Shown here in pieces: positions 36,454-60,689 of a DNA stretch of 64,000 nt; position 1 is the first letter of the stretch; each line of letters starts with the position of its first letter. The position numbers and the translations under genes are program-made. Origin of the DNA: a virus; the IMG/VR virus record IMGVR_UViG_3300022555_000010, positions 1 through 64,000 of that record, one strand, 5' to 3'. The notes beneath the pieces were generated by a model that was given only the letters and a program-made list of their open reading frames with translations, was not told the DNA's origin and made no database searches.

Positions 36454-36923
36454 GGAAGAAAGTGGATTGGACTATTCCAAGGATAAGACCTAATGATTAC
36501 TCATATCTGATTAGATTACGAGACCTCGATGTTTGGAAGAAATGGGCAATAAATATATCCGGATTGGAAAATCTCGAAATCGAGGCCAGAAAGTTTTCAA
36601 AAAAAGATGAAAATACCCATATGTGGGTTCGATGTGGTTCTAAGAAAATCTTTGTTAATGAGAACATCATTGGTAATCAGGCCTTCAGACTTCCAGACTT
36701 AAGGGCCTTCTTATTACATGAGTTGGGACATTTAATAGGTAAAAATCGATTGAATAGCGAATATGTTGCTCATAAATGGGCAATCAAGAAAGCCAAACAA
36801 TTGGGACTATTAATGGAATTGAGGAAATTACAAGTTCTGGCTCTTGGATGGAACGGAGGACCAGATATGGAAATAGAATATCGAGTAGCTGAAAAGAAAT
36901 TGTTGAAACAGGGACTATTATGA
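36450..36923 (+). CDS. putative zinc metallopeptidase-like protein
   Basis: LLHELGH...SEYVAH.WA. Confidence 0.55.
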   Translation: MRKKVDWTIPRIRPNDYSYLIRLRDLDVWKKWAINISGLENLEIEARKFSKKDENTHMWVRCGSKKIFVNENIIGNQAFRLPDLRAFLLHELGHLIGKNRLNSEYVAHKWAIKKAKQLGLLMELRKLQVLALGWNGGPDMEIEYRVAEKKLLKQGLL

Positions 36924-37205
36924 CTTTTTGCACCCATGGTTATAAATGCCCAAAATGCGGATCTTCGGCTATCCAGATGAAAAAAAGAATTGTGGTGCGA
37001 TATCTCTCAAATCTGGACTCGAAACCCTAATTTATCATCACACGTAAATATCACCGTTAAAGTCGGAAAGTCGAAAATCTTTCTGGAAGATACAGATAAT
37101 CTTTATTGCGGGGGATGTGGCTATTTAAGTGAATCAACAGCCTTTAAGTGGAACCCAGGACCCATAGGCTCTATCCCGGTAACAGCAGAAAAAGAGGTAG
37201 CATGA
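36920..37205 (+). pseudogene. array member split by a frameshift in A7 (36980-36986)
   Basis: MTFCTHGYKCPKC joins ELWC...GPIGSIPVTAEKEVA if one A is removed; aligns with the next gene. Confidence 0.7.
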
Positions 37206-37543
37206 GTGCCAGTTACAGTTATCAAGGATGGAAATGCCCCAAATGCGGTAGCGAGAACCTGGGAGTGACTGTCGAATTGGAATGTCGCCTCGAACAAACC
37301 GAATTTACAAATCCTGAAGGTTATGTCGGGAATGATTACCATGTGGAACCCCCATTCTCGGGGAACGGGGGTATGACCAAAACTTCACCAATGTCCTGTC
37401 ATAATTGCGGATATCAGGCCACGGTTGAAGCATTTGAGTGGATTAAAGGCCCAGAAGGATCTATCACGGCAACAGCAGAAGTCGCAATATGTGACGACTT
37501 AACCCCTCAATCAAGTCTTAATGTGTCATATATGACGCATTAA
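37202..37543 (+). CDS. array microprotein
   Basis: CPKC..CHNC..GPEGSITATAE. Confidence 0.8.
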   Translation: MSASYSYQGWKCPKCGSENLGVTVELECRLEQTEFTNPEGYVGNDYHVEPPFSGNGGMTKTSPMSCHNCGYQATVEAFEWIKGPEGSITATAEVAICDDLTPQSSLNVSYMTH

Positions 37544-37562
37544 AGACACCTGTGTCAATTAT

Positions 37563-37757
37563 ATGAGTCATTATCCATTGATCAGATGCCCAAAATGTTT
37601 CAGTCATGAATTGGATTTGAGAGGTGATCCGAAACATAGTAATTATACGGTATACCAATGCCTGAAATGCGGTAATGATGGTTCGAATATCGAATTCTCA
37701 GTTAATAACCCGGAAGGCTGTATCGCAGTAAATCAGGGCGAGGATGTTAAAGAATGA
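37563..37757 (+). CDS. array microprotein
   Basis: NPEGCIAVNQGEDV. Confidence 0.8.
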   Translation: MSHYPLIRCPKCFSHELDLRGDPKHSNYTVYQCLKCGNDGSNIEFSVNNPEGCIAVNQGEDVKE

Positions 37758-37954
37758 AATCCGGGAAACATAGATGCCATAACTGTATGGGAGATGTCTT
37801 CTGGGACGGAACTCGAAGACAGCCTGTTAAATATATCCTCAAATGCGTCAAATGCGGTCAAACAGGCAATTATCTAACCTTCCTTGATAATACCCCAAAA
37901 GGATGTTTCCTGGTCAGAGAGGAACAAGACGAATTATGCCTCACTTTACCTTAA
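37754..37954 (+). CDS. array microprotein
   Basis: TPKGCFLVREEQDE. Confidence 0.8.
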   Translation: MKSGKHRCHNCMGDVFWDGTRRQPVKYILKCVKCGQTGNYLTFLDNTPKGCFLVREEQDELCLTLP

Positions 37955-38136
37955 AATTAAGATGTCCATATTGTCTATTCAGAATCTTCCACCTCGCTAT
38001 CGTCCAGGATGCATTGGAGATCGAGCCGCAATACGAATGCCAGGGATGCGGTTATACAGATATCTCTGAAAATCTCTACGATAATACCCCAAAAGGATGT
38101 ATCGCAGTGACAATGGGGGAGGACGTAAAAGAATGA
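37936..38136 (+). CDS. array microprotein
   Basis: TPKGCIAVTMGEDV. Confidence 0.8.
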   Translation: MPHFTLKLRCPYCLFRIFHLAIVQDALEIEPQYECQGCGYTDISENLYDNTPKGCIAVTMGEDVKE

Positions 38137-38306
38137 ATTACCGATGCCCCAAATGTAATGAAACCGAATTTAAAGAGGCGAATATTATGTCCAACGGGAG
38201 ACGAGTAGTCGAATGCCGTAATTGTGGATTTGAAGATTTCGATTTCTGGATGATTGACCTCATCCCGGAAGGCACTATCCCAGTAAGACAGGAAAGGGAT
38301 ATTTAA
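38133..38306 (+). CDS. array microprotein
   Basis: IPEGTIPVRQERDI. Confidence 0.8.
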   Translation: MNYRCPKCNETEFKEANIMSNGRRVVECRNCGFEDFDFWMIDLIPEGTIPVRQERDI

Positions 38307-38501
38307 ATGGCTCACTTTATCTTAGGCGTCAAATGTCCCAAATGTCTCTCGCATTCTATTCAGGTGTCAGATATCCAATCCTGGGAAAGAGGAAGACTCT
38401 GGGAATGCACAAATTGCCATTATGACGACGTCGAACAAACCTTTATCCAAAATGAACCAAAAGGCTGTATCACCGTAACAGCAGGAAAAGACGTGGAATG
38501 A
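38307..38501 (+). CDS. array microprotein
   Basis: EPKGCITVTAGKDV. Confidence 0.8.
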   Translation: MAHFILGVKCPKCLSHSIQVSDIQSWERGRLWECTNCHYDDVEQTFIQNEPKGCITVTAGKDVE

Positions 38502-38740
38502 CTATCAGTACCGTCAAAATTACACAATTAAATGGAAAGATTAAAATCAGCCAATTAAGATGTCTTTCATGTGGGAACACGGGATTTGATAAAATGATCA
38601 AAAAAGTGCCTATGATTCAATTGTCCACATTGGACGTCCAATTGAAATGTAATCATTGTGGCCAATTAGGGGATATGTGGATCTTCAGGGATAAAACCCC
38701 TCCAGGTACTATCCCGGTCAACAGGGAAAGGGATATATGA
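38498..38740 (+). CDS. array microprotein
   Basis: TPPGTIPVNRERDI. Confidence 0.8.
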   Translation: MTISTVKITQLNGKIKISQLRCLSCGNTGFDKMIKKVPMIQLSTLDVQLKCNHCGQLGDMWIFRDKTPPGTIPVNRERDI

Positions 38741-38928
38741 TCCGAGTCATCAGATGCCCCATTTGTCTGAGCCACCGTCTCTCCCGAGATATCCCATTGA
38801 AATTCATGGATTATAAATCCAGGTGGAAATGTAAGGATTGCAATTATGAGGATACCGATGATAACTTCATCGTGAATTGTGCCCCAGGATGCATTACCGT
38901 ATCAAGAGGCGAGGACGTAATAAAATGA
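38737..38928 (+). CDS. array microprotein
   Basis: APGCITVSRGEDV. Confidence 0.8.
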   Translation: MIRVIRCPICLSHRLSRDIPLKFMDYKSRWKCKDCNYEDTDDNFIVNCAPGCITVSRGEDVIK

Positions 38929-39250
38929 AAAGATTAAAAGAAATCATGGTTGCCTATCTCAAATTAAATTGGTATCTATTAACCCAAGGCATGTGGAAAG
39001 GCGAATGCGGCTATACCGTCCAACACCAAAATAATCACATCGTTAAAATCGCCGCAGTTAAAGGCTCTATCCGCAATTTCACCTTCCAAGTAATGAAAAC
39101 CTTCTATGAGGAACAATAATGAATAAAAGAAATCACTATAACCAGCCGTCCCCTAAAGAATTCATCATCTTTATCATTATCCTCTTCCTCATTGTGAAAT
39201 TGGGCTGCATGGGATTGGATAAATTGTTGTTGAAATAAAAGGAGTCAATT

Positions 39251-39781
39251 ATGAATTGGTTCAAATGCCTGGAGAAGATTAACGACGTCTCAATATCACC
39301 CTTAGATCAGTTTATGGATAATCGAGGCTGGCTCGCAGAAATATATCGGGAAGATACTACCCCAACTTCCCTCCTCCCCAAAATGGCCTATGTCTCAATC
39401 ACTAAGCCAGGAGTCGTCAGAGGCCCTCACCAACATACTCAACAATCAGACTTATTCGCCTTTGTCTATGGAATATGGTGGGTTAAACTCTGGGACGTCC
39501 GACAAGACTCTCCAACCTATAAGACTATCATGAGATTCAAACTCACGATCCCAGCCGTCGTCATCGTACCCCCAGGCGTCGTCCACGCTTACGGTAACGC
39601 CCATTACAAAAAGAATGGCATCGTCTTCAACCTCCCGAACCAACTCTTCAAAGGCCAAGGCAAGAAAAACCCGGTAGACGAAATCAGACACGAAGAGAAT
39701 CCAGCCTTCAATACAGACGATATCTCAAACCAACATTGGATCTCCCAATTCTGGGCTCTACAAACCTATATCCAATCATAA
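39251..39781 (+). CDS. dTDP-4-dehydrorhamnose 3,5-epimerase-like cupin (RmlC-like)
   Basis: DNRGWLAEIYR, PGVVRGPHQH..Q.D, WDVRQDSPTY, VPPGVVHAY. Confidence 0.85.
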   Translation: MNWFKCLEKINDVSISPLDQFMDNRGWLAEIYREDTTPTSLLPKMAYVSITKPGVVRGPHQHTQQSDLFAFVYGIWWVKLWDVRQDSPTYKTIMRFKLTIPAVVIVPPGVVHAYGNAHYKKNGIVFNLPNQLFKGQGKKNPVDEIRHEENPAFNTDDISNQHWISQFWALQTYIQS

Positions 39782-40016
39782 ACAGCACACCCGTGTAATA
39801 CCTCTTTTCTTCCCCCTACATATAATACTAAAGAAATTTCTGCACTTTCCCCACCCGTGTAATATCGAGGAATAGCCATATTTTCCAGAAGGTAGGGAAA
39901 GAGGTGGAAATGGGTTGAGCAGTATAGGGACATACATGCACGATAACATAGATACTGTTACATAGACATATAGAGAGTTATATACAGGGATAGACATATG
40001 ACTGCTTACCAGGTAA

Positions 40017-40124
40017 CAAGATGAAAATGATATGAAACCAAGATGAAAATGATATGAAACCAAGATGAAAATGATAGCAACCAAGATGAAAATAATATGA
40101 AACCAAGATGAAAATGATAGCAAC
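40017..40124 (+). repeat. five tandem 21-22 bp iteron-like repeats CAAGATGAAAATrATA(TGA/GC)AAC
   Basis: Units start at 40017, 40039, 40061, 40082 and 40104. Confidence 0.9.
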
Positions 40125-40230
40125 CCGACAGAGAATTTTCCCATTCCTCTCCACAGAATTTTCACTCCAATTCTTGTTACGGGACAGAAACACTTCCAAC
40201 AGTTCCATATGGTCGGCGATGTAGGGGCCT

Positions 40231-40303
40231 TGAAATAGGACAGCTATGAAAATAACGGAAGGCAAGTGCCTTGTGGGGGCCTGTTCTATGAGCCAGGATT
40301 TTT
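40231..40303 (+). repeat. bipartite repeat, copy 1: TGAAATAGGACAGCTATG-N39-ATGAGCCAGGATTTTT
   Basis: Same boxes and spacing at 48479-48551. Confidence 0.85.
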
Positions 40304-40337
40304 TGAAAATTCGATTTTGCGATTTTGGGGTAAAAGG

Positions 40338-40552
40338 ATGAATAATGACATGGCGTTAATGATCTCATTGCAATTTTGTGATGGGTGTCGCAAAAAGGTG
40401 GATATAAGGGTGGGGTTATCAGCAGACAGATGGGGGAGGAAGTGGAATATCTGTCCGAGATGTGGTGGGACAGGGCATATTGGGAAAATGATTGGGTATC
40501 TGGGGTAGAGGGGTGCATATTTGTGGCTGATGAAATAAATGTGAGGAATTAA
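40338..40552 (+). pseudogene. array member with an apparent 1-nt deletion near 40467-40469
   Basis: CPRCGG continues in the -1 frame as DRAYWENDWVSGVEGCIFVADE. Confidence 0.65.
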
Positions 40553-40941
40553 TGGGGAGTGGGTTTCAATTCAGCAAAGTGGTGACGACGGCGGAATTAT
40601 ATTGTGCCAAGTGTCGGGAAGTGGTGGACATACGGGTGGACATATCGAAGGATCGGTGTGTGGAGTGGACAGAGTGTCCGAGATGTCATGGGAATTCGAC
40701 GACCTGGAAGAATTCGAATAAGCCTGGGGACACGGTTGGGAGTATTTATGTGGTAGACGAGGAGAATTACCATCAGGATTATCAGAGGATGGCACCACAA
40801 TTTCGGGGGAATCGTGTGGGAGGATCTTGTAGGGAGTGTGGGAACTGCGATAAATGTACGGTACATTCGACAGATGGGTGGGCAAGTTGTTGGTGGCCGA
40901 AGGGAAGTATTATTGTGATGGAGGAGCGTGAGGAGGGATAA
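40552..40941 (+). CDS. array protein, two fused units
   Basis: TVGSIYVVDEE and CWWPKGSIIVMEERE. Confidence 0.8.
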   Translation: MGSGFQFSKVVTTAELYCAKCREVVDIRVDISKDRCVEWTECPRCHGNSTTWKNSNKPGDTVGSIYVVDEENYHQDYQRMAPQFRGNRVGGSCRECGNCDKCTVHSTDGWASCWWPKGSIIVMEEREEG

Positions 40942-40944
40942 AAG

Positions 40945-41121
40945 ATGGTAGAATTCAAACCATGTAGGACTTGTGGGTATCGGCCATATGACAATTACAA
41001 GTTATCGGATGATGGGTGTAACCGGGAATTTATTACAAAGGGAGGGAAAGACTGTTGGGTTCCGGAAGGGAGCATTGGGATTTCGGATGAGCAGCCAGTA
41101 ATTGAGACAATTGGGGTATAA
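40945..41121 (+). CDS. array microprotein (not in track)
   Basis: MVEFKPCRTC...CWVPEGSIGISDEQPVIETIGV. Confidence 0.8.
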   Translation: MVEFKPCRTCGYRPYDNYKLSDDGCNREFITKGGKDCWVPEGSIGISDEQPVIETIGV

Positions 41122-41127
41122 TGGGGG

Positions 41128-41337
41128 ATGGACGATGAGATTAAATATTTCAAATTATGGTGTTATGACTGTAAGAGGTGGGCAGACATACGGATGTCAG
41201 TAGATTTGGAGGGGAAGGAATTAGCAGGGGTGACGAGCTGTTCGATATGTAAAGGGAAGGATACGAGATGGCTCTTTAGTTTTACGGGGGCGTCCAAGGA
41301 GGGGTGCATATTTGTGACGGGGAGTCGGGATGAGTAA
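41128..41337 (+). CDS. array microprotein
   Basis: KEGCIFVTGSRDE. Confidence 0.8.
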   Translation: MDDEIKYFKLWCYDCKRWADIRMSVDLEGKELAGVTSCSICKGKDTRWLFSFTGASKEGCIFVTGSRDE

Positions 41338-41537
41338 TAATGAATTAAAGAGATGTGGGACGTGTGAAGCGTATAAGGATTGGAATCGTGAAGGGGGATT
41401 TGGAGGAGCAGGGATGAAGAGGTGTTCCTTGCATTTAAGAGCGTTGGGGGGGGATATCTGAAGAATGTAGGCGGACGAGGATACATTGGCACCCGGTAGG
41501 GACGGTAAGGGTTGAGGGAGAGCGGGATGAGTTTTAA
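41330..41537 (+). pseudogene. array member frameshifted in G8 (41446-41453)
   Basis: G7 would restore ...HWHPVGTVRVEGERDEF. Confidence 0.7.
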
Positions 41538-41711
41538 ATTGGATGAATTAAAGAGGTGCGGGACTTGTGGGAGTTATCGTGGGGGATCACGTCAGAGAAT
41601 CAGTGTCAGAGGGGATTGATGGGGTTGGGGGTTTGTATGAATGATGGGAAGGGGAGGATTTATTGGCATCCGGTGGGAATGATAAGGGTGGAGGAAGAAA
41701 GGGATGAGTAA
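41527..41711 (+). pseudogene. array member frameshifted in G5 (41581-41585)
   Basis: G6 would restore ...YWHPVGMIRVEEERDE. Confidence 0.7.
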
Positions 41712-41943
41712 GGGCTTGGAGGGATGTAAGGCCTGTGAGACTTGTGGGGATTATTTGGAATGGGAGACGATATTGGTTGCAAGGAAATGGATCTGTACCA
41801 GTGGAATAATTTTTACGGGAGTGTGTATTCAGGATGGCAGGATTTATTGGCATCCGGTGGGGACGATAAGAGTTATGGGGGAGCAAGATGACATTTCAAA
41901 AGATGAGAACGATGGCATTAATTCAGAGGAGTGCCGGGGGTAA
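41704..41943 (+). CDS. array microprotein
   Basis: YWHPVGTIRVMGEQD. Confidence 0.8.
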   Translation: MSKGLEGCKACETCGDYLEWETILVARKWICTSGIIFTGVCIQDGRIYWHPVGTIRVMGEQDDISKDENDGINSEECRG

Positions 41944-42094
41944 GGTTCCGCCGATAGAGGGGGGAGGGTGTCAGGAGTGTCAGGTTTTTTATGATGGGTG
42001 TAACAGTCTTCAGAGTCGGGAGGAGATATTGACTTGTTTTGTAGCATTGGGGTGTATCAAGGTTATTAGAGAGCAGGATGCAGAGTCAGTTTAA
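41888..42094 (+). CDS. array microprotein
   Basis: CFVALGCIKVIREQD. Confidence 0.75.
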   Translation: MTFQKMRTMALIQRSAGGKVPPIEGGGCQECQVFYDGCNSLQSREEILTCFVALGCIKVIREQDAESV

Positions 42095-42251
42095 AGGGTG
42101 TTTCAATTGTGGTCAGAATATCTACGTTCCAAGTGCGATTGTTGGAGTATATTGTAATGATTGTATAGTGGAGGCTGGTAAGGTTCGGATGGAATTATCG
42201 AAATGGTATCCGAAGGGGGCGATACCGGTTCAGGGGGAGCGTGATGAGTAA
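42078..42251 (+). CDS. array microprotein (not in track)
   Basis: WYPKGAIPVQGERDE. Confidence 0.8.
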   Translation: MQSQFKGCFNCGQNIYVPSAIVGVYCNDCIVEAGKVRMELSKWYPKGAIPVQGERDE

Positions 42252-42396
42252 TATTGAATCATGTCGTGGTTGTCAGAGGAGGCAAGGGAGTTGTAATTGG
42301 TTAAGGGAGTCAATGGGAGATAAGTGGATGAGTAATCTTGATCAATGTTGGCATCCGATAGGGACGATATTAGTGATATGGGAGCAGGATGAATAA
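42244..42396 (+). CDS. array microprotein (not in track, 50 aa)
   Basis: CWHPIGTILVIWEQDE. Confidence 0.8.
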   Translation: MSNIESCRGCQRRQGSCNWLRESMGDKWMSNLDQCWHPIGTILVIWEQDE

Positions 42397-42556
42397 TAAG
42401 TGGGAAGGGTGTTCAGAATGTTGTCGAGGGAAGACGGGGTCTGGGTACGGGTATTGTGCCTGGATAAGGGAAGATTTAGGGTGTAGGGATTTAGATGTTC
42501 GGTTGTGTTGGCATCCGGTTGGGACGATTTTAGTGGTTAAGGAACGGGATGAGTGA
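42389..42556 (+). CDS. array microprotein (not in track)
   Basis: CWHPVGTILVVKERDE. Confidence 0.8.
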   Translation: MNNKWEGCSECCRGKTGSGYGYCAWIREDLGCRDLDVRLCWHPVGTILVVKERDE

Positions 42557-42743
42557 ATTCAAGTCATGCACGAAATGTGGTGGAAGGCCATATATTGATT
42601 TCAAGTTATCGATAGGGGATTGTCCTCGGAGGTATTGGATAGATCAGAGGAGGACGTTTAGTGGGGTAGACTGTTGGTATCCGGAGGGGAGTATACCGGC
42701 AGATGATGAGATGCCGGTGATACCGGTAATAGGTGAAGAATGA
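42549..42743 (+). CDS. array microprotein
   Basis: CWYPEGSIPADDEMPVIPVIGEE. Confidence 0.8.
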   Translation: MSEFKSCTKCGGRPYIDFKLSIGDCPRRYWIDQRRTFSGVDCWYPEGSIPADDEMPVIPVIGEE

Positions 42744-42934
42744 AGAATAAACTGGATGAGCGTGTAATCAAGATATTGGGATGTCGGGAATGCGGGAATG
42801 GGGATAGATGTAAGATGGTGGATAGGTGTGTGAGTCGTGCTAATCGGATAGATGAGGAACGGGAGGATGGTCAAGTGGGAGGGTATTGGTATCCTGTTGG
42901 GACGATCCGGGTCGTGGGTGAGAAGAATGGGTGA
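42740..42934 (+). CDS. array microprotein
   Basis: YWYPVGTIRVVGEKN. Confidence 0.8.
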   Translation: MKNKLDERVIKILGCRECGNGDRCKMVDRCVSRANRIDEEREDGQVGGYWYPVGTIRVVGEKNG

Positions 42935-43118
42935 ATTTAATTCATGCTTTACGTGTGAATTTTTACCGTTTGATGGATTTTCATTAGCGTTGCAGGAATG
43001 TCCACATCGGGAATGGGCATTGGTAGCGAACACTCAATTATTTGATTGTTGGGGTCCCAGGGGTTGTATACAGGTGGCAGGCGAGAGGTCTATGATTCCG
43101 GTAATAGGTGAGGAATGA
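42927..43118 (+). CDS. array microprotein
   Basis: CWGPRGCIQVAGERSMIPVIGEE. Confidence 0.8.
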   Translation: MGEFNSCFTCEFLPFDGFSLALQECPHREWALVANTQLFDCWGPRGCIQVAGERSMIPVIGEE

Positions 43119-43336
43119 AGAATGAGGCGTCAGAAGATTTGAAAGCCTTTGTGTTAATGAATCGGTTACAGGAGAAGAGGATGGCATTATGGGCAAGGGG
43201 GAAGGTAGAGGGAGGGGCATGTTCCGCGTGTAATGGGTGTTTTGGATGTAGGGCGTTATTTGGGACCTGGAATAAATGTTGGACACCTATTGGGGCGATC
43301 GGGATTCGAGAGGAGGTGGATGATGGTTCACTGTGA
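43115..43336 (+). CDS. array microprotein
   Basis: CWTPIGAIGIREEVD. Confidence 0.8.
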   Translation: MKNEASEDLKAFVLMNRLQEKRMALWARGKVEGGACSACNGCFGCRALFGTWNKCWTPIGAIGIREEVDDGSL

Positions 43337-43526
43337 AGATTGTGGATTGATGAGGAAGAAGTTCAACAATTGGAATTCGGATGGACCCACGTGTAAGGCG
43401 TTTCGGAAAGCAATGGGGATAGAGAGAGACTTTCGGGTGTCATGGTTGAAGTTTCTGGAACGATGTTGGCATCCTGTGGGGAGTATACCGGTGATCAAGG
43501 AACGAGATGAACAAGATGGAGCCTGA
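43320..43526 (+). CDS. array microprotein
   Basis: CWHPVGSIPVIKERDE. Confidence 0.8.
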   Translation: MMVHCEDCGLMRKKFNNWNSDGPTCKAFRKAMGIERDFRVSWLKFLERCWHPVGSIPVIKERDEQDGA

Positions 43527-43698
43527 CTGTCAGGAATGTGAAATATTGAGGGCTAGGAGTTCAAGAGGGAATCAATGTTCTGAATTTCGGGCGGCGGTTG
43601 GTATGAGGACAGATGTTTTGTATGGGAGTTTGAGTAAGTGTTTTCATCCGGTGGGGACGATACTTGTGGTAGAGGAGTTTGATGAAAAGGGTCATTAA
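43507..43698 (+). CDS. array microprotein
   Basis: CFHPVGTILVVEEFDE. Confidence 0.8.
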   Translation: MNKMEPDCQECEILRARSSRGNQCSEFRAAVGMRTDVLYGSLSKCFHPVGTILVVEEFDEKGH

Positions 43699-43885
43699 TT
43701 GGATTTGGTTATGGTGTACGACTCCGAGGTGGGACAGGGATGATGCGTCTATTTCGATGCAATTGAAGGGATGTAAGGGATGTGGGAGATACAATAAGAA
43801 GTGGGACTGCAAGTTATTGATGACCTATGAGGTCTGTTTTCATATGCCTGGGACGATTAGGGTAATAAGGGAGCAAGATGAGTAA
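43682..43885 (+). CDS. array microprotein
   Basis: CFHMPGTIRVIREQDE. Confidence 0.8.
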   Translation: MKRVINWIWLWCTTPRWDRDDASISMQLKGCKGCGRYNKKWDCKLLMTYEVCFHMPGTIRVIREQDE

Positions 43886-44156
43886 GGATTGTTTAGATTG
43901 TGGGAACAGTCGGTTAGATGTTTATGGACGGAGTATTCCGGTTATACACCACATATGTTTAAAGTGTCGTGGAGACAGGTTTGATCCAAAGCCGATGGTA
44001 TCGCAATGGTATCCGAGGGGGTTGATTCGGGTAGAGGATGAGTTTGAGATAGGGCCGGCGGAGTATGTGGGGCAGATGCCGATACGGGAGGAAGTCACGG
44101 TAATACCCAGGGGATGTATTGGGGTAATCAGGGAGATGGCCGAAAGTGGAGCGTGA
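43878..44156 (+). CDS. array protein with two tags
   Basis: WYPRGLIRVEDE and IPRGCIGVIRE. Confidence 0.8.
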   Translation: MSKDCLDCGNSRLDVYGRSIPVIHHICLKCRGDRFDPKPMVSQWYPRGLIRVEDEFEIGPAEYVGQMPIREEVTVIPRGCIGVIREMAESGA

Positions 44157-44475
44157 TCACAAGATTATCTGTAATGAGTGTGGGAAGATATATTACCCGG
44201 AGTCATTTGATGAGATTGATTCCCGGACGAGGTGTGTTTGTCGTGGTTCATTTTATGGGATAGCTGATTTTAGAGGATTAGATGTTTGGGGGATGTTGGG
44301 GGAGTTCAGGATTTTTGAGGGCAAGGAGATAAAAGTTGAGGCGATATTGGTAGACACGAAGACATTGGGGACGATGAACATAAAGAAGGAAGAAAGTGAT
44401 AATGGGTTATTTTGGAATAAGAGGCTGATTTTGGAAGGGTGTATTAATGCGTGGAAGGAAAGGGATGAGAAATGA
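44146..44475 (+). CDS. array protein
   Basis: LEGCINAWKERDE. Confidence 0.75.
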   Translation: MERDHKIICNECGKIYYPESFDEIDSRTRCVCRGSFYGIADFRGLDVWGMLGEFRIFEGKEIKVEAILVDTKTLGTMNIKKEESDNGLFWNKRLILEGCINAWKERDEK

Positions 44476-47370: not shown

Positions 47371-47563
47371 GGATGATTGCCGGGATTGTGGTGCATATCG
47401 GTTTGAGAGGAAAGCTGGAGAAGGGACTATGCGGACATGGACGATGTGCAACAAGATTGGGAATTTACTCGGGAAGAACATTCTTCCAACTTTGCAACAG
47501 TGTTTTCACCCATCTGGGACGATACTGGTGATAGGAGAGAAAGATGAAAACAAAGTGTTGTGA
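47363..47563 (+). CDS. array microprotein
   Basis: CFHPSGTILVIGEKDE. Confidence 0.8.
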   Translation: MSEDDCRDCGAYRFERKAGEGTMRTWTMCNKIGNLLGKNILPTLQQCFHPSGTILVIGEKDENKVL

Positions 47564-47744
47564 TTGCCAATTGGTGATTAACGGAAAGGTTTTAGGGTAT
47601 CGTAACTGCAATGCATTTCGAGTGAAGATGGGACTGGGGCATATGACTCCATTACCGGTGACGAAGGATGAGTATGATTGGGGCAGTCGATGTTTTCATA
47701 AGAGCGGGACGATATTAGTAGCAGATGAACGAGAAGCAATATGA
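47544..47744 (+). CDS. array microprotein
   Basis: CFHKSGTILVADERE. Confidence 0.8.
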   Translation: MKTKCCDCQLVINGKVLGYRNCNAFRVKMGLGHMTPLPVTKDEYDWGSRCFHKSGTILVADEREAI

Positions 47745-47940
47745 TTGTCGGGAATGTGGTTCTTATTTGATGGACATTCCGAAAGGTAGTGTTGGGAATA
47801 AGCCGATGAGGAATTGGAGATTATGTCGGTTGGCTTGCAAGTTAAAGGGGGTTGTTCCGATTAATTCCCGTGATAAGTGTTGGTATCCTATTGGGACTAT
47901 CCCGGAATTTGGGGAGCAAGATGAAGCCGACAAAGGATGA
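47725..47940 (+). CDS. array microprotein
   Basis: CWYPIGTIPEFGEQDE. Confidence 0.8.
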   Translation: MNEKQYDCRECGSYLMDIPKGSVGNKPMRNWRLCRLACKLKGVVPINSRDKCWYPIGTIPEFGEQDEADKG

Positions 47941-48115
47941 GATTGATGGGTATCTGGACACAGAGACAAGTCTTCATTGTCCGGAACACGGGTCTACTAA
48001 AATATTTTTATCCGATATTTGGAGGACGACAATCGCTTGTGGCAAATGTGGATATTTTCGTGATTTATTCCCGGAAGGAACTATTCTCGTTGTTGCGGAG
48101 AAAGATGAAAGTTAA
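47921..48115 (+). CDS. array microprotein
   Basis: FPEGTILVVAEKDE. Confidence 0.8.
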   Translation: MKPTKDEIDGYLDTETSLHCPEHGSTKIFLSDIWRTTIACGKCGYFRDLFPEGTILVVAEKDES

Positions 48116-48281
48116 GTGTAAAACTTCGTTAGAGGAAGAGGATTTACACATCATTTATTGGGATGATGATATGAAGGAGATGGTCGGGGATATGACTCCG
48201 GCGGGAACTTTCTGGTTAGTGCCATCAGGGTGTATTCCGGTGATTAGGGAACGAGATGAAACTGAGGAGAGGAATGCTTAA
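48105..48281 (+). CDS. array microprotein lacking CxxC
   Basis: VPSGCIPVIRERDE. Confidence 0.75.
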   Translation: MKVKCKTSLEEEDLHIIYWDDDMKEMVGDMTPAGTFWLVPSGCIPVIRERDETEERNA

Positions 48282-48486
48282 GGAAACGAACAAGAGGATG
48301 CAGGAATGGATGATAATAGAGGAGGTTGCCTATAGGCGTGATTTAGAGAGGATCGCCAGGGAAGGGGTCAGGACTTGTCAGAACTGTGCGAAGTTTAATT
48401 GTTGTTTATTAGCCTGGGGAGACATTCCGACGTGTTGGTGTCCGGTGGGATGTATCTATGTCTTTGCAGAGAGGGATGTGAAATAG
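48256..48486 (+). CDS. array microprotein
   Basis: CWCPVGCIYVFAERDV. Confidence 0.8.
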   Translation: MKLRRGMLKETNKRMQEWMIIEEVAYRRDLERIAREGVRTCQNCAKFNCCLLAWGDIPTCWCPVGCIYVFAERDVK

Positions 48487-48551
48487 GACAGCTATGTTTT
48501 TGTTGGACGGTTACGGGGTATAATAGGTCAGTTTGATGAGCCAGGATTTTT
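48479..48551 (+). repeat. bipartite repeat, copy 2 (TATAAT in the spacer)
   Basis: TGAAATAGGACAGCTATG 48479-48496 and ATGAGCCAGGATTTTT 48536-48551. Confidence 0.85.
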
Positions 48552-49527
48552 GGCATTTTCCAATTTAGGAAAGAGGGGTGATATGGAATATTTCAGGTAT
48601 TCGGGGCACAAGAAGCCGGAGAAGACGATTGCAGAACAAAGGCAGGATATTGAGGATTTAAAGGAGAGGATTCGGAATGAGCCTCGGCAGTCATCCCGGA
48701 CAAGGATGGCAGCGGATTTACAGGATCGGGTTAGGAAATTGATATCCAAGTTGCCTTGTAAGACATCGAAGAGGAAAATCCACAATGTCGATGCCAGTTA
48801 AAGTCTGGAATATTAAGAAACTTCAGGCAGAGATTGAGGGTAGGAAGATGTTAACGCCGAATGATATTAGGCACATTCGATCACTTCTGGGAGAGGTTGA
48901 GGACAGGAAGCAGTTTTGGCACTGGTTGAAGTGCGAACTTTGTGGTGGATATTCGATTTTTGATGATCATCTTCATATGTTTGATTATCAGAAGCGGGGA
49001 GTTTGTGCTTGTGGTCATCGTCTTTTCAAGGTGGCAGATTCCGGTAATTTCTCAAAGGGGACGATATATGTCTGGGACGAATGTGACACGGAAGATGACG
49101 ATTCCTCAGAGATTGAGATTTTTTCAAGTCAAGACGATGGTGCCTTGGTTATCGTGTAGTGACTGCCAGGAGGGGCAGGATGGGGCAGATTGCGGTCCAA
49201 AGTATGAAGCCATGAGGTCAGATGGGTTAAAGGACTGTTGGCGACCACGGGGACACATACTGGTTTGGGATGAAAGGGATGTGGAATGACAACATCTTGG
49301 AGTGCCAGGAAGTTTATCACGACGATTTTCGGGACAGGTCCGAGTCTTTCCTTGAAAGAGGTCAAGCAGAGAAGATATCACATTGTGGATTGTGAGACTT
49401 GTGCCAGGGACGGGCATGGTCCGAATTATGAACAATGTAAGAATGATGTGGAGATTTGGAAGAAGGCAGGGGTTAATTGTTGGAGGCCTGTAGGGGTTCT
49501 CTTAATTTGGGATGAAAGGGATACAGA

Positions 49528-50289
49528 ATGATTGAATATCAAATGGTGTTGATTTGTTTGGCGGCGGTAATTGCAGAGACAATTGATTCCGGGCTGGGAA
49601 TGATGTATGGGACGATATTATCCCCGTTGCTGATAATGTGTGGATATTCCCCGTCTGATGTAATTCCGGCGATTTTATTCTCCCAGGCGATTGGGGGACT
49701 AATTGCGACATTGGGACATCACCGGCACGGTAATGCAGATTTTCGATTTATGTCTGATGATTTCAAGATAGGTGCGGCGATTTATTTATTAGGGGTCGTG
49801 GCAGTCTTTATGGGAGCGGGGCTGGCGATGAGGATACCGAAAGAATGGCTGCAATTATATATTGGGATTTTGGTATCGATTATGGGATTGATTGTGATTT
49901 GCAGGCACAACTTTCATTTTTCCTGGAAAAAGGTAATGGCAATAGGATTTTTAAGTGCGTTTAACAAATCATTGTCTGGGGGAGGATATGGCCCATTGGT
50001 ATCGAGTGGTTTAATTATTGCCGGGACGAAGGGAAAGAATTCGATTGCGACTTGTGATTTTGCGGAGGCACCGATATGTGTGACGGCATTCTTTGTTTGG
50101 GCCTGGATGAAGAATAAATACCCGGATTTGAATATGTTGTGGGCATTAACGATAGGATCAATGGTTGGGGGATGGATAGGACCCTGGGGATTATCCCGGA
50201 TTAAGACGGATGGGATTGTGACGACATTGGTGGGCTGGCTGGCATTAGGGGTTGGAATCACTTGTGCCTTTGGGATCGTAAAGCCTTGA
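49528..50289 (+). CDS. TauE/SafE (TSUP)-family membrane transporter
   Basis: IDSGLGMMYGTILSPLL, HHRHGN, LSGGGYGPLV; multiple TM helices. Confidence 0.85.
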   Translation: MIEYQMVLICLAAVIAETIDSGLGMMYGTILSPLLIMCGYSPSDVIPAILFSQAIGGLIATLGHHRHGNADFRFMSDDFKIGAAIYLLGVVAVFMGAGLAMRIPKEWLQLYIGILVSIMGLIVICRHNFHFSWKKVMAIGFLSAFNKSLSGGGYGPLVSSGLIIAGTKGKNSIATCDFAEAPICVTAFFVWAWMKNKYPDLNMLWALTIGSMVGGWIGPWGLSRIKTDGIVTTLVGWLALGVGITCAFGIVKP

Positions 50290-50940
50290 GAGTAAAGATT
50301 AAAGATCGGGAATCAATTATTGCGAAGGCACTTAATTCCCGGAGAGGGAGGATGAATTTGGCTCGGGCGATGGTCCAGCCGATATTAGGAGGCAGAGGAG
50401 TTTCTTCAGGATTAGTTTGTGATACTTGTGCCTTTGCAGAGATAGAGGATTGTGAGATTTACAGGATTACTCTTAATGAGGATCGGGGATGTTGGATGGA
50501 GAAGGGGAGATTGATTATTTGCCTGGAGGAGAGGGATGAAGCGTAATTGTGAAGATTGTCGGATCTGGACAGAGAATATCCCTTGTAGTGAATTTGCCAA
50601 GAGGCATCAATTATACTCCGAAGGTGGTCGAAATTTCACACAGGAATTTGATGCAGGGAAGTGTATTTGTTTCCATGAGTTCGGAACAATTCTGATATGG
50701 AATGAAATTGATGTATGAGTTTGTGGAGTAGATATAAAGTCTGGAGAGACAAACCTTGGACGGTTTATATCGAACAGGGGATACCGGTGGTCCTGGAGAC
50801 GGGGAGATTATTAATTCCGGGGAAGTCCCTTGGTTTCATGTCTGTCCAACTTGTAACAAACAATTGTCGGGGCAATTAAGTGGGATGTTCTGGGTTGATG
50901 AAAACATTGGGACAATTTTCACTTGGGATGAGATGGATGT

Positions 50941-50988
50941 ATGATCTCTTATGATACACAGTATATGATCTCTTATGATACACAGTAT
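50941..50988 (+). repeat. perfect 24-bp tandem duplication at a gene start
   Basis: ATGATCTCTTATGATACACAGTAT x2 (MISYDTQY x2). Confidence 0.9.
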
Positions 50989-52251
50989 TGGTCTTGCAAA
51001 TTATGTGGCAAGGAATACAGTCGGTCGAAGAAATCATTTGATCGATGGCCTGTTGGAAGTTTGACAAGTCAACCCTGGTTGTTTAACTGTAAGCATCTTC
51101 ATCATTTAATCTCGGAATCTGAAACCTATGTTTGTCCGGAAGGGTGTATATTTGTTCATGCAAAAGAAGAATTGGATGAAGAAATGGTTGAAGAGGTTGA
51201 AACCTGAAGACCAATATGCGGCACCATTGATTGAGTGGTGTGACCTTCACGGCAAGGTGAGTCATTTCCAACCGGACGATGATGGTGAACTTCGCTGTGC
51301 CGAATGTGGTAAGAGGACTCAGGAATTACCTGAATTCCCGAAAGGGTGCATTATAACCTGGGGAGAGAAAGACTTTGGATAATCGAGATCCAAACAGATA
51401 TTGTGACACGCATGGAACCAATGGGGCTGTTCAAACGGGTTGGACCGGATGGCCGAGGGATACTTGGCTTTGCCCTTATTGTGGTGAAAAATTGAAAATA
51501 GTCCCGGCTGGATGTTTTCTGGTTCGCGGTGAGAGGGATGTTATGGATTTTGATCAGGGAGAGGAATCAACGGATGAGTGATCCTAAAATACCGTGGCAG
51601 AGAATGTGGCGGGAAGCCTATTGTGAGCATTGTGAAGACATAGGGGGATATGAGCCATGCACGAGTCCTCCGAGTCAATTACCACCTTGTGAGAAGTGTC
51701 ATCGTAACACTATGATGTGGCAGGCGATTGTGATACCTGAAGGAACTATTTTTGCCTGGGAGGAACGAGATGAGTTATAGTTCAGAATATTGGGCAGTAT
51801 TGGACAAGAATTTGCGGGATTTAAATCCGAGGGTGCAAGTATATGGGGACGGGTGGTATTTATTCCGGTGTAGTAGATGCAAGGAGCATTTTGTGGGGAC
51901 ATCGATGGTGGAGTGGTGTGACTGCGGCAATACTAATTTCAATGATAGTCCGATGGGAAGTATTAGAGTGGTGTCGGAATTAACGGATCGGGATGCCGGG
52001 AGTATAATCACCTGGGATGAAAGAGATGAGCCATGCAATTCATTGTTCCAAAGAATGAAGAGATTAATCGGACGATAGAGAGGCCGGGTAAGGGTCGGGA
52101 GTGTAGGACTTGCAGGCATTTATGGAACTGGGAAAAAATTGGGCAAGGGCTAAAGTATTGTGGAGGTTGTGATAATTGGACTCGGAATAACTGGGTGCCT
52201 GATTGTCCTGATGGGACGCTTTTAGCGATTGATGAAAAAGATGAGGATTAA

Positions 52252-52413
52252 ATGACTCGGGATCAGATGACTACGGCAAGTGTGGAGGAGGCATTCAGAG
52301 CCTGGCAGAAAGATATGGATCATCAGTTGTTTAAGGCAATGGATTCGATTTTCATCACCAATCTCAAAAAGGCCGGGATTATTGTGACAGAGTGTGAAGA
52401 AGATGAAGGATGA
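52252..52413 (+). CDS. helical array member without CxxC (not in track)
   Basis: DHQLFKAMDSIFITNLKKAGIIVTECEEDE. Confidence 0.7.
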   Translation: MTRDQMTTASVEEAFRAWQKDMDHQLFKAMDSIFITNLKKAGIIVTECEEDEG

Positions 52414-52573
52414 GAATCAAACCTGGGAAGAGTTTGAGGTTTCCCAAAAGAAGGAGTGGAAAAGATGGCGTTATACCCGTGACCACCTATTTCAAGAGAT
52501 ATTTGATAAAATTTGGATTGCCCACTTAAAAACTTCCGGGACAATTGTGACCACTGATGAAAAAGACTGTTAA
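52403..52573 (+). CDS. helical array member without CxxC (not in track)
   Basis: DHLFQEIFDKIWIAHLKTSGTIVTTDEKD. Confidence 0.7.
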   Translation: MKDENQTWEEFEVSQKKEWKRWRYTRDHLFQEIFDKIWIAHLKTSGTIVTTDEKDC

Positions 52574-53365
52574 TTCGCCAAATGTTCTACGAGGAACATT
52601 CCCGGTTTTGAAGTCGATATGCCAGAGATGTATGGCAAAGACAAGGGTTCCTTTGGGAACAATAGGGGATGTGAATAAGAACGGGACTTTCAGGAAGCCG
52701 GTATCCTGGACAGATTTGGATGAGGACAGATGGAAAGCAGGATTGGTATTATGTCCACAAATGGGGCATGAAGCAAAGCCAAACAAGCATTGGTGTCTTC
52801 GGGCAATAGAGGTAATGGCAGTAAAAGAAGGGGCAATATCCGTCTGGGATGACTCCAATAAAATCTGAAGAAAAATTTGTAGTTTGCGTAATTTCATTAA
52901 AAAGTGTAAAAAAATCTTTAGTTTATGAAATCAACAGATAAAGAGATAACGGATTACATGAGGAAGAACAATCGCTGTCCGGATTGTGGTGGCGATGATT
53001 TCAGGGAAGGTCCGAGTGGAGGGATGTCTACGAACATCATGTGTGCCGGATGTGGAGCCAGGTTTAATATGAGTCCCTTTGGAGCGGAGAGGATTGGTGA
53101 TCCAGTTGTCCCGGTTGGATGTCTTCCGGCATTATTCGAGGAAGACGTTCAAACGCCTTTAGAGAAGGTTGTCGGATTCTTCAAGAGATGAAAATAACTC
53201 CAGATCGGATCGAAGTTCCTTGGTGTATCTTCTGTAATGAGGAAAAATACTTGGATGAGGTTCGGAAGTATAACCGGGACTTCAGATGTCCGAGATGTGG
53301 TGATAGACTCCTCTGGAGGGATTTTGCCAGTCCGGAAGGGATGATTCGGGTGACAGGTGAACAAG

Positions 53366-53710
53366 ATGTATGATGACCTTTCAAAGAAACAGGAGATGTG
53401 GGCAGAAGAGGACCGTAAGATCTTTCACTCGATGTCTTTAGCAATGTGTCCGGAAGGATGTATTTTGGTCGAGGATGACAAGATGCAGACTGAAGAAGCG
53501 AATCCGCCTGGAGTGTTGACTCTGGAAGCGTTGATGTTCGCGACAGCAGTCATTGAAACTCCTTCAGGGTGCATTACAGCATTTGATGAGAAAGAGGAGA
53601 CGGTGGATACGATTGCCAGGCAGGATATTCTGTTGATGATAAACCAGGTTGATCTGATGAATTACAAGGCTAAAGGGGTCATCGTGGGGACTGATGAGCA
53701 AGATGAATAG
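53366..53710 (+). CDS. array protein with three tags
   Basis: CPEGCILVEDD, TPSGCITAFDEKE, AKGVIVGTDEQDE. Confidence 0.75.
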   Translation: MYDDLSKKQEMWAEEDRKIFHSMSLAMCPEGCILVEDDKMQTEEANPPGVLTLEALMFATAVIETPSGCITAFDEKEETVDTIARQDILLMINQVDLMNYKAKGVIVGTDEQDE

Positions 53711-53804
53711 AAAGATTTTTGACAGAATATGTGGTGCCGGTAGTATAATCTGATATGTTTCCGGGAAGTTTTGGATAGATTTTGAATAAAATAAGTGTGG
53801 GATT

Positions 53805-54188
53805 ATGAATACAACAGACATTCCAAATGGGTATGTGGTTCGAGGGCCGAGTGGAAAGAATGCCTTTATCGAGATGGATCATAATGGCAAATCGGAGGAG
53901 AAGGCGATTGGGATTGAGTTGACTGGTTGGCCGGATCTGATGGACCGGCACGGAATCCTGAAGTCGGATACGCTCGTATTGGTTCACGCGGTCTGGGGAG
54001 AATCTGGAAGCCTTTTCAAGAGGTTGGATTCAACTCATCTGATTTACAACAATGAGCCAGTCACGGTGGAGTCGATAGCGAAGCGGGGACTGCTTCGGGA
54101 TACGGCTCAGAAGATTTGGCAAGACTATATGGACAAGATGGATATGAAAGCGGTGGAGGAGGTGTTGAATGAAAAAGTTCTCACGTAG
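53805..54188 (+). CDS. hypothetical protein
   Basis: 127-aa ORF, untagged. Confidence 0.6.
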   Translation: MNTTDIPNGYVVRGPSGKNAFIEMDHNGKSEEKAIGIELTGWPDLMDRHGILKSDTLVLVHAVWGESGSLFKRLDSTHLIYNNEPVTVESIAKRGLLRDTAQKIWQDYMDKMDMKAVEEVLNEKVLT

Positions 54189-54624
54189 ACACGGGTGGCT
54201 GTGGTTGAGTTCGTATGCTTCCGGGGATGGGTCAATTTCCTTTACCTGGTTGGATGGAGAAATTGGGAAGGGTGGGAAGCCAGTTTCAGAGCCGGTGACG
54301 GAAAGTGATGTCTCCGAATGTTTGAATACTCCGGAGATGGAGGTCAAATGGAAGGGTTGGGATATCCTGGATCTTGGGGGATGTGACCGGGTTCATCCGA
54401 TTCGATTGGTGAGGGATGTGGTGAGGCCGTATCACACATCGTGCCGGTTGGAGATGGGTGGAGAGGATTACCGGTATGCGATGACCAGAGGTGGAGGCAT
54501 CGAGTTCTTTACTGGGAAGAAAGATGAGCATGTCGAGAATCTGGATATCATTCAGAGTCTGAATTATTTTCTGAAGAATGAAGGGTTGTTCTTTAGTCGG
54601 GCAGAGCAGAGGAAGGCTGGATGA
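54169..54624 (+). CDS. hypothetical protein
   Basis: 151-aa ORF, GGAGG RBS. Confidence 0.6.
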   Translation: MKKFSRRHGWLWLSSYASGDGSISFTWLDGEIGKGGKPVSEPVTESDVSECLNTPEMEVKWKGWDILDLGGCDRVHPIRLVRDVVRPYHTSCRLEMGGEDYRYAMTRGGGIEFFTGKKDEHVENLDIIQSLNYFLKNEGLFFSRAEQRKAG

Positions 54625-55043
54625 GGGCGACTAAAGAGGACCAGTGGCCATCGTACAGGACATCGGTAAAGAGTCATGTGCCTCCGGGCGTAACAGGTGT
54701 CTCGGGACCTCCTGGGTCCCCACCTATCGTGGGGATTTTCAGATGGTGTAAGGTTTGCAACAAGGTGTCGTTGGCACATCATAATGGGCTGGTCAAGTGT
54801 TTGTTTTGTCGTGCTGAAACGATGCCGATCATTAATGCCTGGTGTCCTAAAGGGGCGATCTTGGTATGGTCAGAAGAATCGGCAACATAGCCAAGTCGTC
54901 AAATGACAGATTGTTGGCCTCGCAAGCCCTGAACAGGTTTCTTGACAATCATAGACGAGAGATGGACTATGACGCGGTTTGTGGAAAAGGATCATATCAG
55001 AAGATGTTGGAAGCGAAAGAAGCCGGAGTAATCATAACGACTT

Positions 55044-55340
55044 GTGAGAAAGATTTTGAGGATAATTCTAATTGTTCTGTTTATTTCCATGCCAGCATGG
55101 GGAGAATGGCTGGAAGATTACGGGATCTATGTTTACCCGGTCGCCGAACAAAGTGAAATTTCGAGGCTATATACTGGTCCGATAATAGACCCCGGAAAGT
55201 TTCAATATGGGTTAAAGGCAGAGTATCGAGACTATTCATTGTCTTTTTTACTTGGTCGGCGGATCGATGTCTATGAGGGCGAATCAGTTGGCGGGGTTAG
55301 ATTTGACACTGTTTGGTTGAAATACAGTAAACGATTTTAG
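55044..55340 (+). CDS. putative secreted or outer-membrane small protein
   Basis: Signal-peptide-like N-terminus; C-terminal ...YSKRF. Confidence 0.45.
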   Translation: MRKILRIILIVLFISMPAWGEWLEDYGIYVYPVAEQSEISRLYTGPIIDPGKFQYGLKAEYRDYSLSFLLGRRIDVYEGESVGGVRFDTVWLKYSKRF

Positions 55341-60582: not shown

Positions 60583-60653
60583 TTTTTATCCTGTTGGCTG
60601 CAAGGACATTATTTGCAACGACTTATGATGAGTCGCATTCTGGTAAATTTTGA

Positions 60654-60683: not shown

Positions 60684-60689
60684 ATTGGT

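Follow-up and report, generated by a model that had tools for sequence, protein, structure and literature searches.

A predicted array of translationally coupled mini-genes sharing one short peptide motif in an uncultured freshwater giant phage

What is the role of a short peptide motif shared by 69 small genes that lie in a row in one phage genome? The locus that raises this question occupies positions 36,920-55,156 of the IMG/VR virus record IMGVR_UViG_3300022555_000010, a linear viral contig of 151,773 bp with a CheckV completeness estimate of 72%; the first 64 kb of this contig are the stretch of DNA analyzed here ("the window"). A preliminary reading of the window without database searches (the sequence-only reading) had described about 69 microproteins with dissimilar bodies and one common ending, called the tag below, and proposed that they form a library of variable payloads on a constant docking or sorting strand, an interpretation that is supported in part. 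The array is real and, as judged from its sequence, it is a tandem series of translationally coupled cassettes, kept throughout a clade of giant phages from fresh water. A cassette is predicted to consist of a small, mostly acidic head, usually with a Cys4 metal site, and a conserved module of ~16 residues, and the array grew by duplication accompanied by gain and loss of copies. As to the role of the shared module, the interpretation that we favor, tentatively and without calling it probable, is that of a common interaction or docking element for one reader, either a phage or a host protein.

The array and its shared motif

The curated count gives 69 plus-strand mini-genes, 65 of them intact and four split by frameshifts, distributed as nine in block 1 (36,920-38,928), 43 in block 2 (40,338-49,531) and 17 in block 3 (50,286-55,156); the total agrees with the earlier hand count, while the split proposed then (9+40+20) had to be revised. 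The products, most of them acidic (median pI 5.4), range from 50 to 129 residues (median 66), the tag occurs ~72 times, with four proteins carrying two or three tags each, and the array of ~18 kb makes up ~12% of the known 152 kb. A strict regular expression for the tag, P.G[TCSA..][ILF].[V..]..[EK].[DNE], has 39 matches in the six-frame translation of the window, all on the plus strand and all inside 37,161-53,596, against a mean chance expectation of 0.03 for nucleotide shuffles of the region and of 0.016 for residue shuffles within the same proteins. When all open reading frames (ORFs) of the 151.8-kb genome were searched with a hidden Markov model (HMM) of the tag, the matches were confined to 36,990-54,890 and to five dispersed copies at 25.4, 100.6, 102.4, 109.1 and 113.3 kb. 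The dispersed tagged genes beyond the window include one for a 148-residue Cys-rich protein and one for a helical member.

The consensus common to all members is [C][WFY][H]P-x-G-[TCS]-I-x-V-x-x-E-x-D-E. Numbered from the invariant Gly (position 0) and counted over 62 tags, its N-terminal side comprises C(-5) in 26/62, W/F/Y(-4) in 35/62, H(-3) in 22/62 and P(-2) in 44/62; its core G(0) in 62/62, T/C/S(+1) in 49/62, I(+2) in 54/62 and V(+4) in 44/62; and its C-terminal side E(+7) in 59/62, D(+9) in 47/62 and E(+10) in 34/62. The motif is carried by Zn ribbons, by the C4 class described below, by Cys-free helical units and, two or three times over, by fusion proteins. In the few Cys-free members, where an amphipathic helix is followed by a strand, only the minimal form G-x-I-x-[VT]-x-x-E is left. 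The earlier statement that nearly all members end in the tag stands as far as the shared motif is concerned, but not its strictly C-terminal position: the tag is followed by tails of 1-37 residues, and some proteins have two or three internal tags.

The codons of the motif reveal two layers of selection. At P(-2), I(+2), V(+4) and E(+7) the choice among synonymous codons matches the genome-wide usage, hence these residues are selected as amino acids, as the sequence-only reading had argued from the variety of codons. Glu at +7 is encoded by GAG 32 times and by GAA 27 times, with Asp found only once, and this balance argues for peptide selection, since a pure Shine-Dalgarno (SD) constraint would favor G. 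The proximal half, [C][WFY][H]P-x-G-[TCS]-I-x-V, is under peptide-level selection; it looks like a strand, a tight turn and a second strand, similar to one strand pair of a WD40 repeat. Solitary tagged genes keep the ExDE residues without an overlapping downstream start, so that ExDE is also retained as a peptide. Where the earlier argument fell short is the nucleotide-level component, which is indicated by the use of GAT for D(+9) in 41/47 cases (87%, compared with 63% genome-wide) and of GGG for G(0) in 42/62 (compared with 30%) and which exists because the distal half encodes the SD site and the ATG of the next gene.

Thus the distal half, x-x-E-x-D-E, is dual-coded, specifying an acidic peptide as well as the ribosome-binding site (RBS) and start codon of the following cassette. 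In most cassettes the next ATG appears as "G-ATG-A" inside the codons of D(+9)-E(+10), in a fixed register that is unchanged at overlaps of -8, -11, -14, -17, -20, -23 and -26 nt, with the upstream stop codon following immediately or later; the start stays in the D-E codons even if the upstream ORF extends for up to six to eight further codons. Codons +5 to +8 form SD motifs of the AAGGAG-, GGGAG- or GGAGAG-type, the same kind of canonical site that is used by the other genes of the phage (an SD-like motif was found at 33/48 array starts vs 18/28 starts of other genes). The overlaps between cassettes fall into classes of -4 nt (15 cases), -8 nt (14 cases) and -11 to -29 nt (23 cases). The cassettes are thereby predicted to be translationally coupled, the downstream start overlapping the upstream ORF and the SD site lying inside the upstream coding sequence. 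RNA structure at the junctions gave no signal (mean z = 0.02) and promoter-like and terminator-like sites inside the array show no excess over chance, which fits long polycistronic units; one long mRNA could be read cassette after cassette.

Translationally coupled genes with ATGA or other stop-start overlaps and an SD site inside the upstream ORF are well known, and the array resembles the textbook cases in its -4 and -8 nt overlaps and in the location of the SD sites. It differs from them in that a conserved peptide motif contains the coupling signal, in a fixed register, and in that this signal is repeated ~60 times in series. A coupling signal fused with a conserved peptide motif and iterated in this way is not described in the full-text literature that we searched.

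Head domains and relatives in other phages

After removal of the tag, the bodies of 66 members fall into 53 BLAST clusters, so that their description as dissimilar is correct at the level of pairwise comparison. It does not hold at the profile level, where a single family with four invariant Cys residues (C-x2-C...C...C) accounts for 22 members and where at least four Cys residues are present in 59/66 members. As distinguished earlier, there are several body classes, including a Cys-free helical one. In the family of 22, referred to here as the main class, the fourth Cys directly precedes W-H-P, i.e. it is part of the tag; with this Cys pattern an assignment of the main class to the classic zinc ribbons was rejected, and a comparison with PDB profiles gave no sequence relative at E <= 10. 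The classic pattern CxxC...CxxCG characterizes a different set of ~20-25 members (class A), which qualify as classic zinc ribbons by their two CxxC knuckles spaced 12-25 residues apart. In a PDB search with the profile of class A, the matches are ribbons of eL43, eS31 and Rpb9 type, at E-values down to 2.5e-4 (C2H2 artefacts excluded); the matched part, profile positions ~1-42, ends with the second knuckle and does not include the tag. From the second knuckle to the tag there are 7-21 residues, mostly 10-13.

Family scans of the 66 members returned little: at most four members matched in Pfam (a sub-threshold generic Zn_ribbon), at most two members per family in PHROGs, one weakly in PADLOC, and five in NCBIfam, where the ECs_2282 family scored 16-21 bits vs a cut-off of 37 over the ribbon part only. 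The Lar restriction-alleviation family (TIGR03655/PF14354), the ECs_2282 family (NF047912) and the generic Zn_ribbon families of Pfam are similar to class A heads in size and in the CxxC...CxxC ribbon, but all matches to them are below the curated cut-offs and cover the ribbon, never the tag. In these scans the members did not resolve into one known Pfam domain with the tag as an internal strand. The family appears to be undescribed, as no Pfam, PHROG, NCBIfam, PADLOC or PDB family covers the array members, and the earlier failure to recognize a named family thus extends to systematic searches. Structure prediction was equally uninformative: AlphaFold2 (AF2) modeled the main class with a predicted local distance difference test (pLDDT) score of 56 from an alignment of 22 sequences and of 53 from 65 sequences, two ESMFold Atlas models have a pLDDT of 0.37, and the ESM Atlas models gave no feature match of 0.9 or more. 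That no stable fold is predicted for the proteins in isolation would agree, if only weakly, with a requirement for a metal or a partner in folding.

An exhaustive profile search over 1.84 billion representatives (threshold E <= 1e-3) yielded 73 matches, of which ~22 belong to the source phage itself, ~48 are small proteins from elsewhere that share the full architecture C-x2-C...C...CWHPxGTILVx[DE]E, and three are artefacts. Two long matches, P0009 and P0022, were rejected as relatives, being translations of low-complexity repeats; the third artefact, P0051, is a WD40 protein matched via the strand pair "vCFhPnG.iLAsgs.D". We take the likeness of this strand-turn-strand element to the tag as a structural hint by analogy. 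The members themselves were rejected as WD40 repeats, for they have one such element each together with Cys4 heads and no tandem blades of ~40 residues with the GH...WD signature. Neither among the profile-search matches nor among the scanned carriers did we find the tag on a recognizable enzyme or domain.

The foreign members also occur in arrays, e.g. in an 11-kb Logan contig with 43 small genes in a row and in a 4-kb ENA contig with 20, and shorter contigs are alike; fusions with two or three tags are likewise found in relatives. A pattern scan of metagenomes gave mostly chance single matches, the real ones being L043, L070, L103, L118, L119 and L136, whereas no other carrier was found in IMG/VR when it was searched with one member and with degenerate DNA patterns. 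Related arrays are thus seen at the DNA level in at least five freshwater phage lineages, and in two further contigs from gene tables only. The most informative comparison is with L118 (JGI contig Ga0247841_10010375, 12.7 kb), which has at least 23 tagged genes and forms with the window 18 reciprocal-best pairs of 32-70% amino-acid identity, with conserved gene order in the distal half. Throughout the array and L118 the tags have in common the core P-x-G-[TCS]-I-x-[VI]-x-x-E. In L118 the proximal core is the same and the tag ends in WDE[RK]P[AE] directly before the stop codon, with a -4 overlap (GC-ATG-A); since the tail residues differ together with the type of junction, the last residues of the tag follow the junction design. 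Identity between ortholog pairs is 47% for the body, 53% for the proximal tag and 56% for the distal tag, from which it follows that each head is individually under purifying selection. The notion of a freely variable payload is not supported by these values, nor by the finding that the heads are almost all small Cys4 modules, predicted to bind metal.

The same distal boundary genes are present in a third lineage, L136. In all three lineages the distal end of the array contains an untagged protein of 120-167 residues (53805-54188 in the window, 9532-10035 on the reverse strand of L118 and 2229-2591 in L136; ~41% identity). The representative in the window, of 127 residues and without a Pfam match, is a candidate for a conserved partner of the tagged proteins. 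The array is old; it has syntenic counterparts in at least five to seven related lineages of freshwater phages, and orthologs of individual members exist.

A common docking element or an inherited signature

If the module is a docking element, all heads would be attached to one reader through the conserved face of the module (G0, I+2, V+4) and the invariant Glu(+7), and the diversified heads would give each member a target of its own; with a common plug and diversified heads, the 69 genes would not be unrelated but would form a library of adaptors or inhibitors. Candidates for the reader are speculative and may include an unfoldase or protease, a VWA protein with its metal ion-dependent adhesion site (MIDAS), the capsid interior, or a host hub; the AAA ATPase and VWA genes located ~3 kb downstream (58457-60094 and 60663-62933) could be considered among them. 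We favor docking because the minimal form with G, I, V/T and Glu survives on differing head architectures, because the module can be repeated within one chain, because Glu(+7) is invariant at the amino-acid level, and because AF2 and ESMFold give no fold for members in isolation. This Glu is presumably exposed, and its presence in 59/62 tags is more easily explained by a shared contact than by 69 independent functions. The full elaboration of this idea, an address-label system in which ~70 metal-binding heads would be plugged into a single reader by a module made of a strand-turn-strand and the invariant Glu, is in our opinion rather doubtful.

Several observations speak against a docking role. 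Real address labels are usually found on diverse cargo, while the tag was never found on a recognizable enzyme or domain; in this respect it is unlike classical sorting signals. The tag of the main class contains a presumed metal ligand, and in the Zn-ribbon members the knuckle and the tag are separated by a small and not very variable number of residues; a hairpin that is a structural part of the head agrees better with both features than a free docking peptide. In ortholog pairs the identity of the tag (53-56%) barely exceeds that of the body (47%), and a part of the conservation of the motif is explained by its role as RBS and start codon. Finally, all members plausibly descend from one ancestor, in which case a shared motif needs no shared partner. 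These points lead to the main alternative, an explanation of the tag as a plain signature of paralogs, which we regard as somewhat unlikely: one small metal-binding domain would have been expanded, the tag being its folding core (the last beta-hairpin with the fourth Cys) together with an inherited RBS/start junction, and the members would act independently of any common reader, e.g. as small inhibitors of different host or defense proteins. Tandem duplication is the obvious origin of such a family, and at least 22 members belong to one HMM family in which one of the four invariant Cys residues is inside the tag; the prevalence of at least four Cys residues (59/66), the knuckle-tag spacing, the similar conservation of bodies and tags in orthologs, the ability of the junction to account for the distal half, and the absence of the tag from unrelated domains among the profile matches all agree with it. 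It does not readily explain why the Cys-free helical members, which cannot use G-x-I-x-V-x-x-E in a Zn fold, nevertheless keep it, why Glu(+7) is invariant with a free choice between GAA and GAG, why ExDE persists in solitary genes, or why the tag-removed bodies are as different as 53 BLAST clusters imply.

Other explanations have less in their favor. Self-assembly, raised as co-polymerization in the sequence-only reading, in which tags pair strand to strand and give rise to mixed oligomers or a polymer, is improbable; it would account for the units of ~30 residues that consist of a helix and a strand and cannot satisfy the lone strand by themselves, for monomers that do not fold in AF2 or ESMFold, and, by reasoning of the Rosetta-stone type, for the natural fusions of two or three units in the source phage and its relatives, but fusions arise trivially among tightly packed genes of the same strand, the acidic tails would repel each other, and the Zn-ribbon members can pair the strand internally. 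An ending that exists purely as a coupling signal, with an irrelevant peptide, is very improbable and largely refuted by the codon data: the position of the ATG in the D-E codons and of the SD site in codons +5 to +8 in fixed register, the 87% of GAT codons, and the tail residues that change together with the junction type in relatives are all as expected from a gene-expression artefact, yet P-x-G-x-I-x-V lies 5' of the SD site and varies freely at synonymous sites, position +7 is Glu in 59/62 tags and Asp once although the codons of both begin with GA, solitary genes keep the motif without a coupled start, and the junctions show no mRNA structure (mean z = 0.02). We give still less credence to a library of precursors of ribosomally synthesized and post-translationally modified peptides (RiPPs), in which a single tailoring enzyme or protease would recognize the ending as a follower peptide while the Cys-rich bodies would serve as cores for modification. 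The pairing of a single unvarying recognition segment with numerous variable Cys-rich peptides, the two HExxH proteins directly 5' of the array, and the cupin and the TauE permease inside it are reminiscent of such a system; against this, no radical-SAM, LanM/LanC-like or YcaO match was found in the 151.8-kb fragment (an incomplete genome), the bodies are Zn-ribbon-like folded modules with 47% conservation between orthologs, signal or export features are missing, and tags can be internal and repeated. That the array is non-coding or an artefact of assembly has a negligible probability. Four members are indeed frameshifted, two of them at homopolymer runs, but independent assemblies from several studies are identical, Cys patterns and amino-acid-level conservation are maintained in orthologs from diverged phages, and the ORFs tile one strand with overlaps of -4 and -8 nt, which refutes this possibility for practical purposes.

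Genomic setting, parallels and significance

Coordinates of the array components and of neighboring genes are listed in Table 1. The window proteins recur on up to ~30 public contigs, the longest of 342 kb, and the available fragment of 151.8 kb is a part of this genome of ~342 kb, with the structural module outside the fragment. All public runs that contain the array stretch are freshwater or lake metagenomes, which identifies the source as an uncultured giant phage from fresh water. Over the array, independent assemblies from several samples and studies are 100% identical and have the same four splits, in each of which head and tag lie in different frames; two of the four frame changes are at homopolymers (A7 near 36985 in cassette 36920-37205 and G8 near 41450 in cassette 41330-41537). 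The split cassettes may be pseudogenes, slippage-dependent genes or the result of a shared sequencing bias. At the start of gene 50941-51207 there is a perfect 24-bp tandem duplication (50940-50988), so that the first eight residues of the protein are immediately repeated; the duplication seems to be very recent.

The GC skew is strongly positive in general and reaches -0.04 at 38-40 kb vs +0.5 just downstream. The gap upstream of block 2 coincides with this local dip and carries 22-bp tandem repeats (4.7 copies at 40017-40125, with a 43-bp super-unit present 2.5 times); it may be a regulatory or origin-like region. The coding strand of block 2 is extremely depleted in C (C 12.0%, G 33.6% vs C 17.2%, G 29.2% elsewhere in the genome). 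The two HExxH proteins 5' of the array have no Pfam or PHROG family match and are possible metallopeptidases by motif. A membrane anion permease of the TauE/SafE family is an unusual gene for a phage.

Table 1. Positions of the array components, of dispersed tagged genes and of neighboring genes (numbering of the contig, of which the window is positions 1 to 64,000)
Feature	Position	Strand	Remarks
RtcB RNA ligase	1107-2522		family match
Protein with serpin C-terminal match	7026-8186		family match
Solitary tagged Zn-ribbon gene outside the array	25410-25685	+	ends in ...FGIIVVRQERDEE; no overlapping downstream start
Two HExxH-motif proteins (HEIIH; HELGH)	35779-36453, 36450-36923	+	directly 5' of the array; context only
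Block 1, nine predicted classic Zn-ribbon cassettes	36920-38928	+	CxxC...CxxCG, 13 residues, P-x-G-[CT]-I-x-V-x-x-E/GED
Untagged insert between blocks 1 and 2	38925-39781	+	64-residue ORF, 39-residue hydrophobic ORF, cupin / dTDP-sugar-epimerase-like protein (39251-39781)
Sole sizeable non-coding gap of the array, 549 bp	39782-40330	.	putative start of block 2 operon
Block 2, 43 cassettes	40338-49531	+	mostly C-x2-C...C...C[WF]HPxGTILV class
Split cassettes	36920-37205, 40338-40552, 41330-41537, 41512-41711		one in block 1, three in block 2
Two-unit fusion protein	40552-40941	+	Zn-ribbon unit and tag, then main-class unit and tag
Further two-tag protein	43878-44156
Small untagged genes embedded in block 2	44472-44612, 48550-48801
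Representative main-class member, 60 residues	46639-46821	+	tag CWHPIGTILVTREKDE at 46771-46818; next ATG at 46814 in D-E codons
TauE/SafE-family membrane permease, untagged	49528-50289	+	between blocks 2 and 3; PF01925, E = 8e-27
Block 3, proximal part, 15 cassettes	50286-53710	+	tag variant ...I-x-[VT]-W-[DG]-E-x-D
Cys-free helix+strand members	52252-52413, 52403-52573	+	in block 3, proximal part
Triple-tag fusion protein	53366-53710	+	in block 3, proximal part
Two untagged genes inside the distal array	53805-54624	+	the first (53805-54188) encodes the 127-residue protein
Last two tagged genes	54621-55156	+	54621-54890 Zn-ribbon-like; 54866/54911-55156 helical, tag followed by 33-residue tail
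T4 gp30.3/NADAR-like protein	57762-58196		E = 1.5e-56
Classic-clade AAA ATPase	58457-60094	+	~3 kb downstream of the array
163-residue ORF between the AAA ATPase and VWA genes	within 58457-62933	+
CobT-like VWA protein	60663-62933	+	~3 kb downstream of the array
WGR-domain protein with Zn-ribbon-like stretch	62935-63873
Dispersed tagged genes outside the window	100626-101072, 102375-102560, 109061-109330, 113340-113600

An equivalent array was not found in the full-text literature searched, and known systems are similar to it in part. Poxvirus ankyrin-repeat proteins with a C-terminal PRANC/F-box-like motif and the BTB-Kelch families combine a constant docking motif with a variable head. As in the array, a single large viral genome contains numerous paralogs, a short conserved C-terminal module is joined to diversified heads, and copies are gained and lost; however, there is no homology, the heads of the array are Cys4 mini-domains of 35-100 residues next to a module of ~16 residues, and its genes are arranged in strict tandem with overlapping stop and start codons in a phage with a bacterial host.

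Encapsulin cargo-loading peptides and the T4 capsid-targeting sequence direct unrelated proteins into the interior of an HK97-fold shell, and they have, by eye only, a comparable core of Gly, small residue, aliphatic, x and aliphatic; the corresponding shell for the tag would naturally be the capsid of the phage. A cargo peptide of the encapsulin type was rejected on account of the placement of the tag, with tails of 1-37 residues, internal and repeated copies and no flexible linker; moreover, the tag is carried only by tiny Zn proteins without a known domain instead of enzymes. The T4 sequence, unlike the tag, is N-terminal and cleaved off. No capsid gene (PF05065, PF07068) was matched in the 151.8-kb fragment of the ~342-kb genome. 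In prochlorosin-type libraries many ProcA peptides are served by one ProcM enzyme. The array resembles them in having dozens of genes with one constant recognition segment beside a variable Cys-rich segment, but its polarity is reversed, no tailoring enzyme was found in the fragment, and its bodies are Zn-ribbon-like folded and conserved between orthologs. A likeness of the tag to the mobile loop of Cpn10/GroES was dropped, since a search of the whole genome, array included, gave no match to PF00166 at E <= 1 and none to PF00118.

Even the conservative reading makes this locus an unusually clean natural case of a peptide motif that doubles as the RBS and start codon of the next gene, in ~60 repeats, and the array defines what appears to be a new Cys4 mini-domain (C-x2-C...C...CWHPxG) that is not folded by AlphaFold2 or ESMFold. 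Should the tags be address labels, the self-coupling cassettes of the locus would amount to a library of adaptors, inhibitors or cargo that can be programmed. If all the tagged proteins do have one reader, the tag would offer a portable element of 16 residues for engineering, and the array would represent a new way for phages to organize their host-takeover or anti-defense factors, with many heads and one plug.

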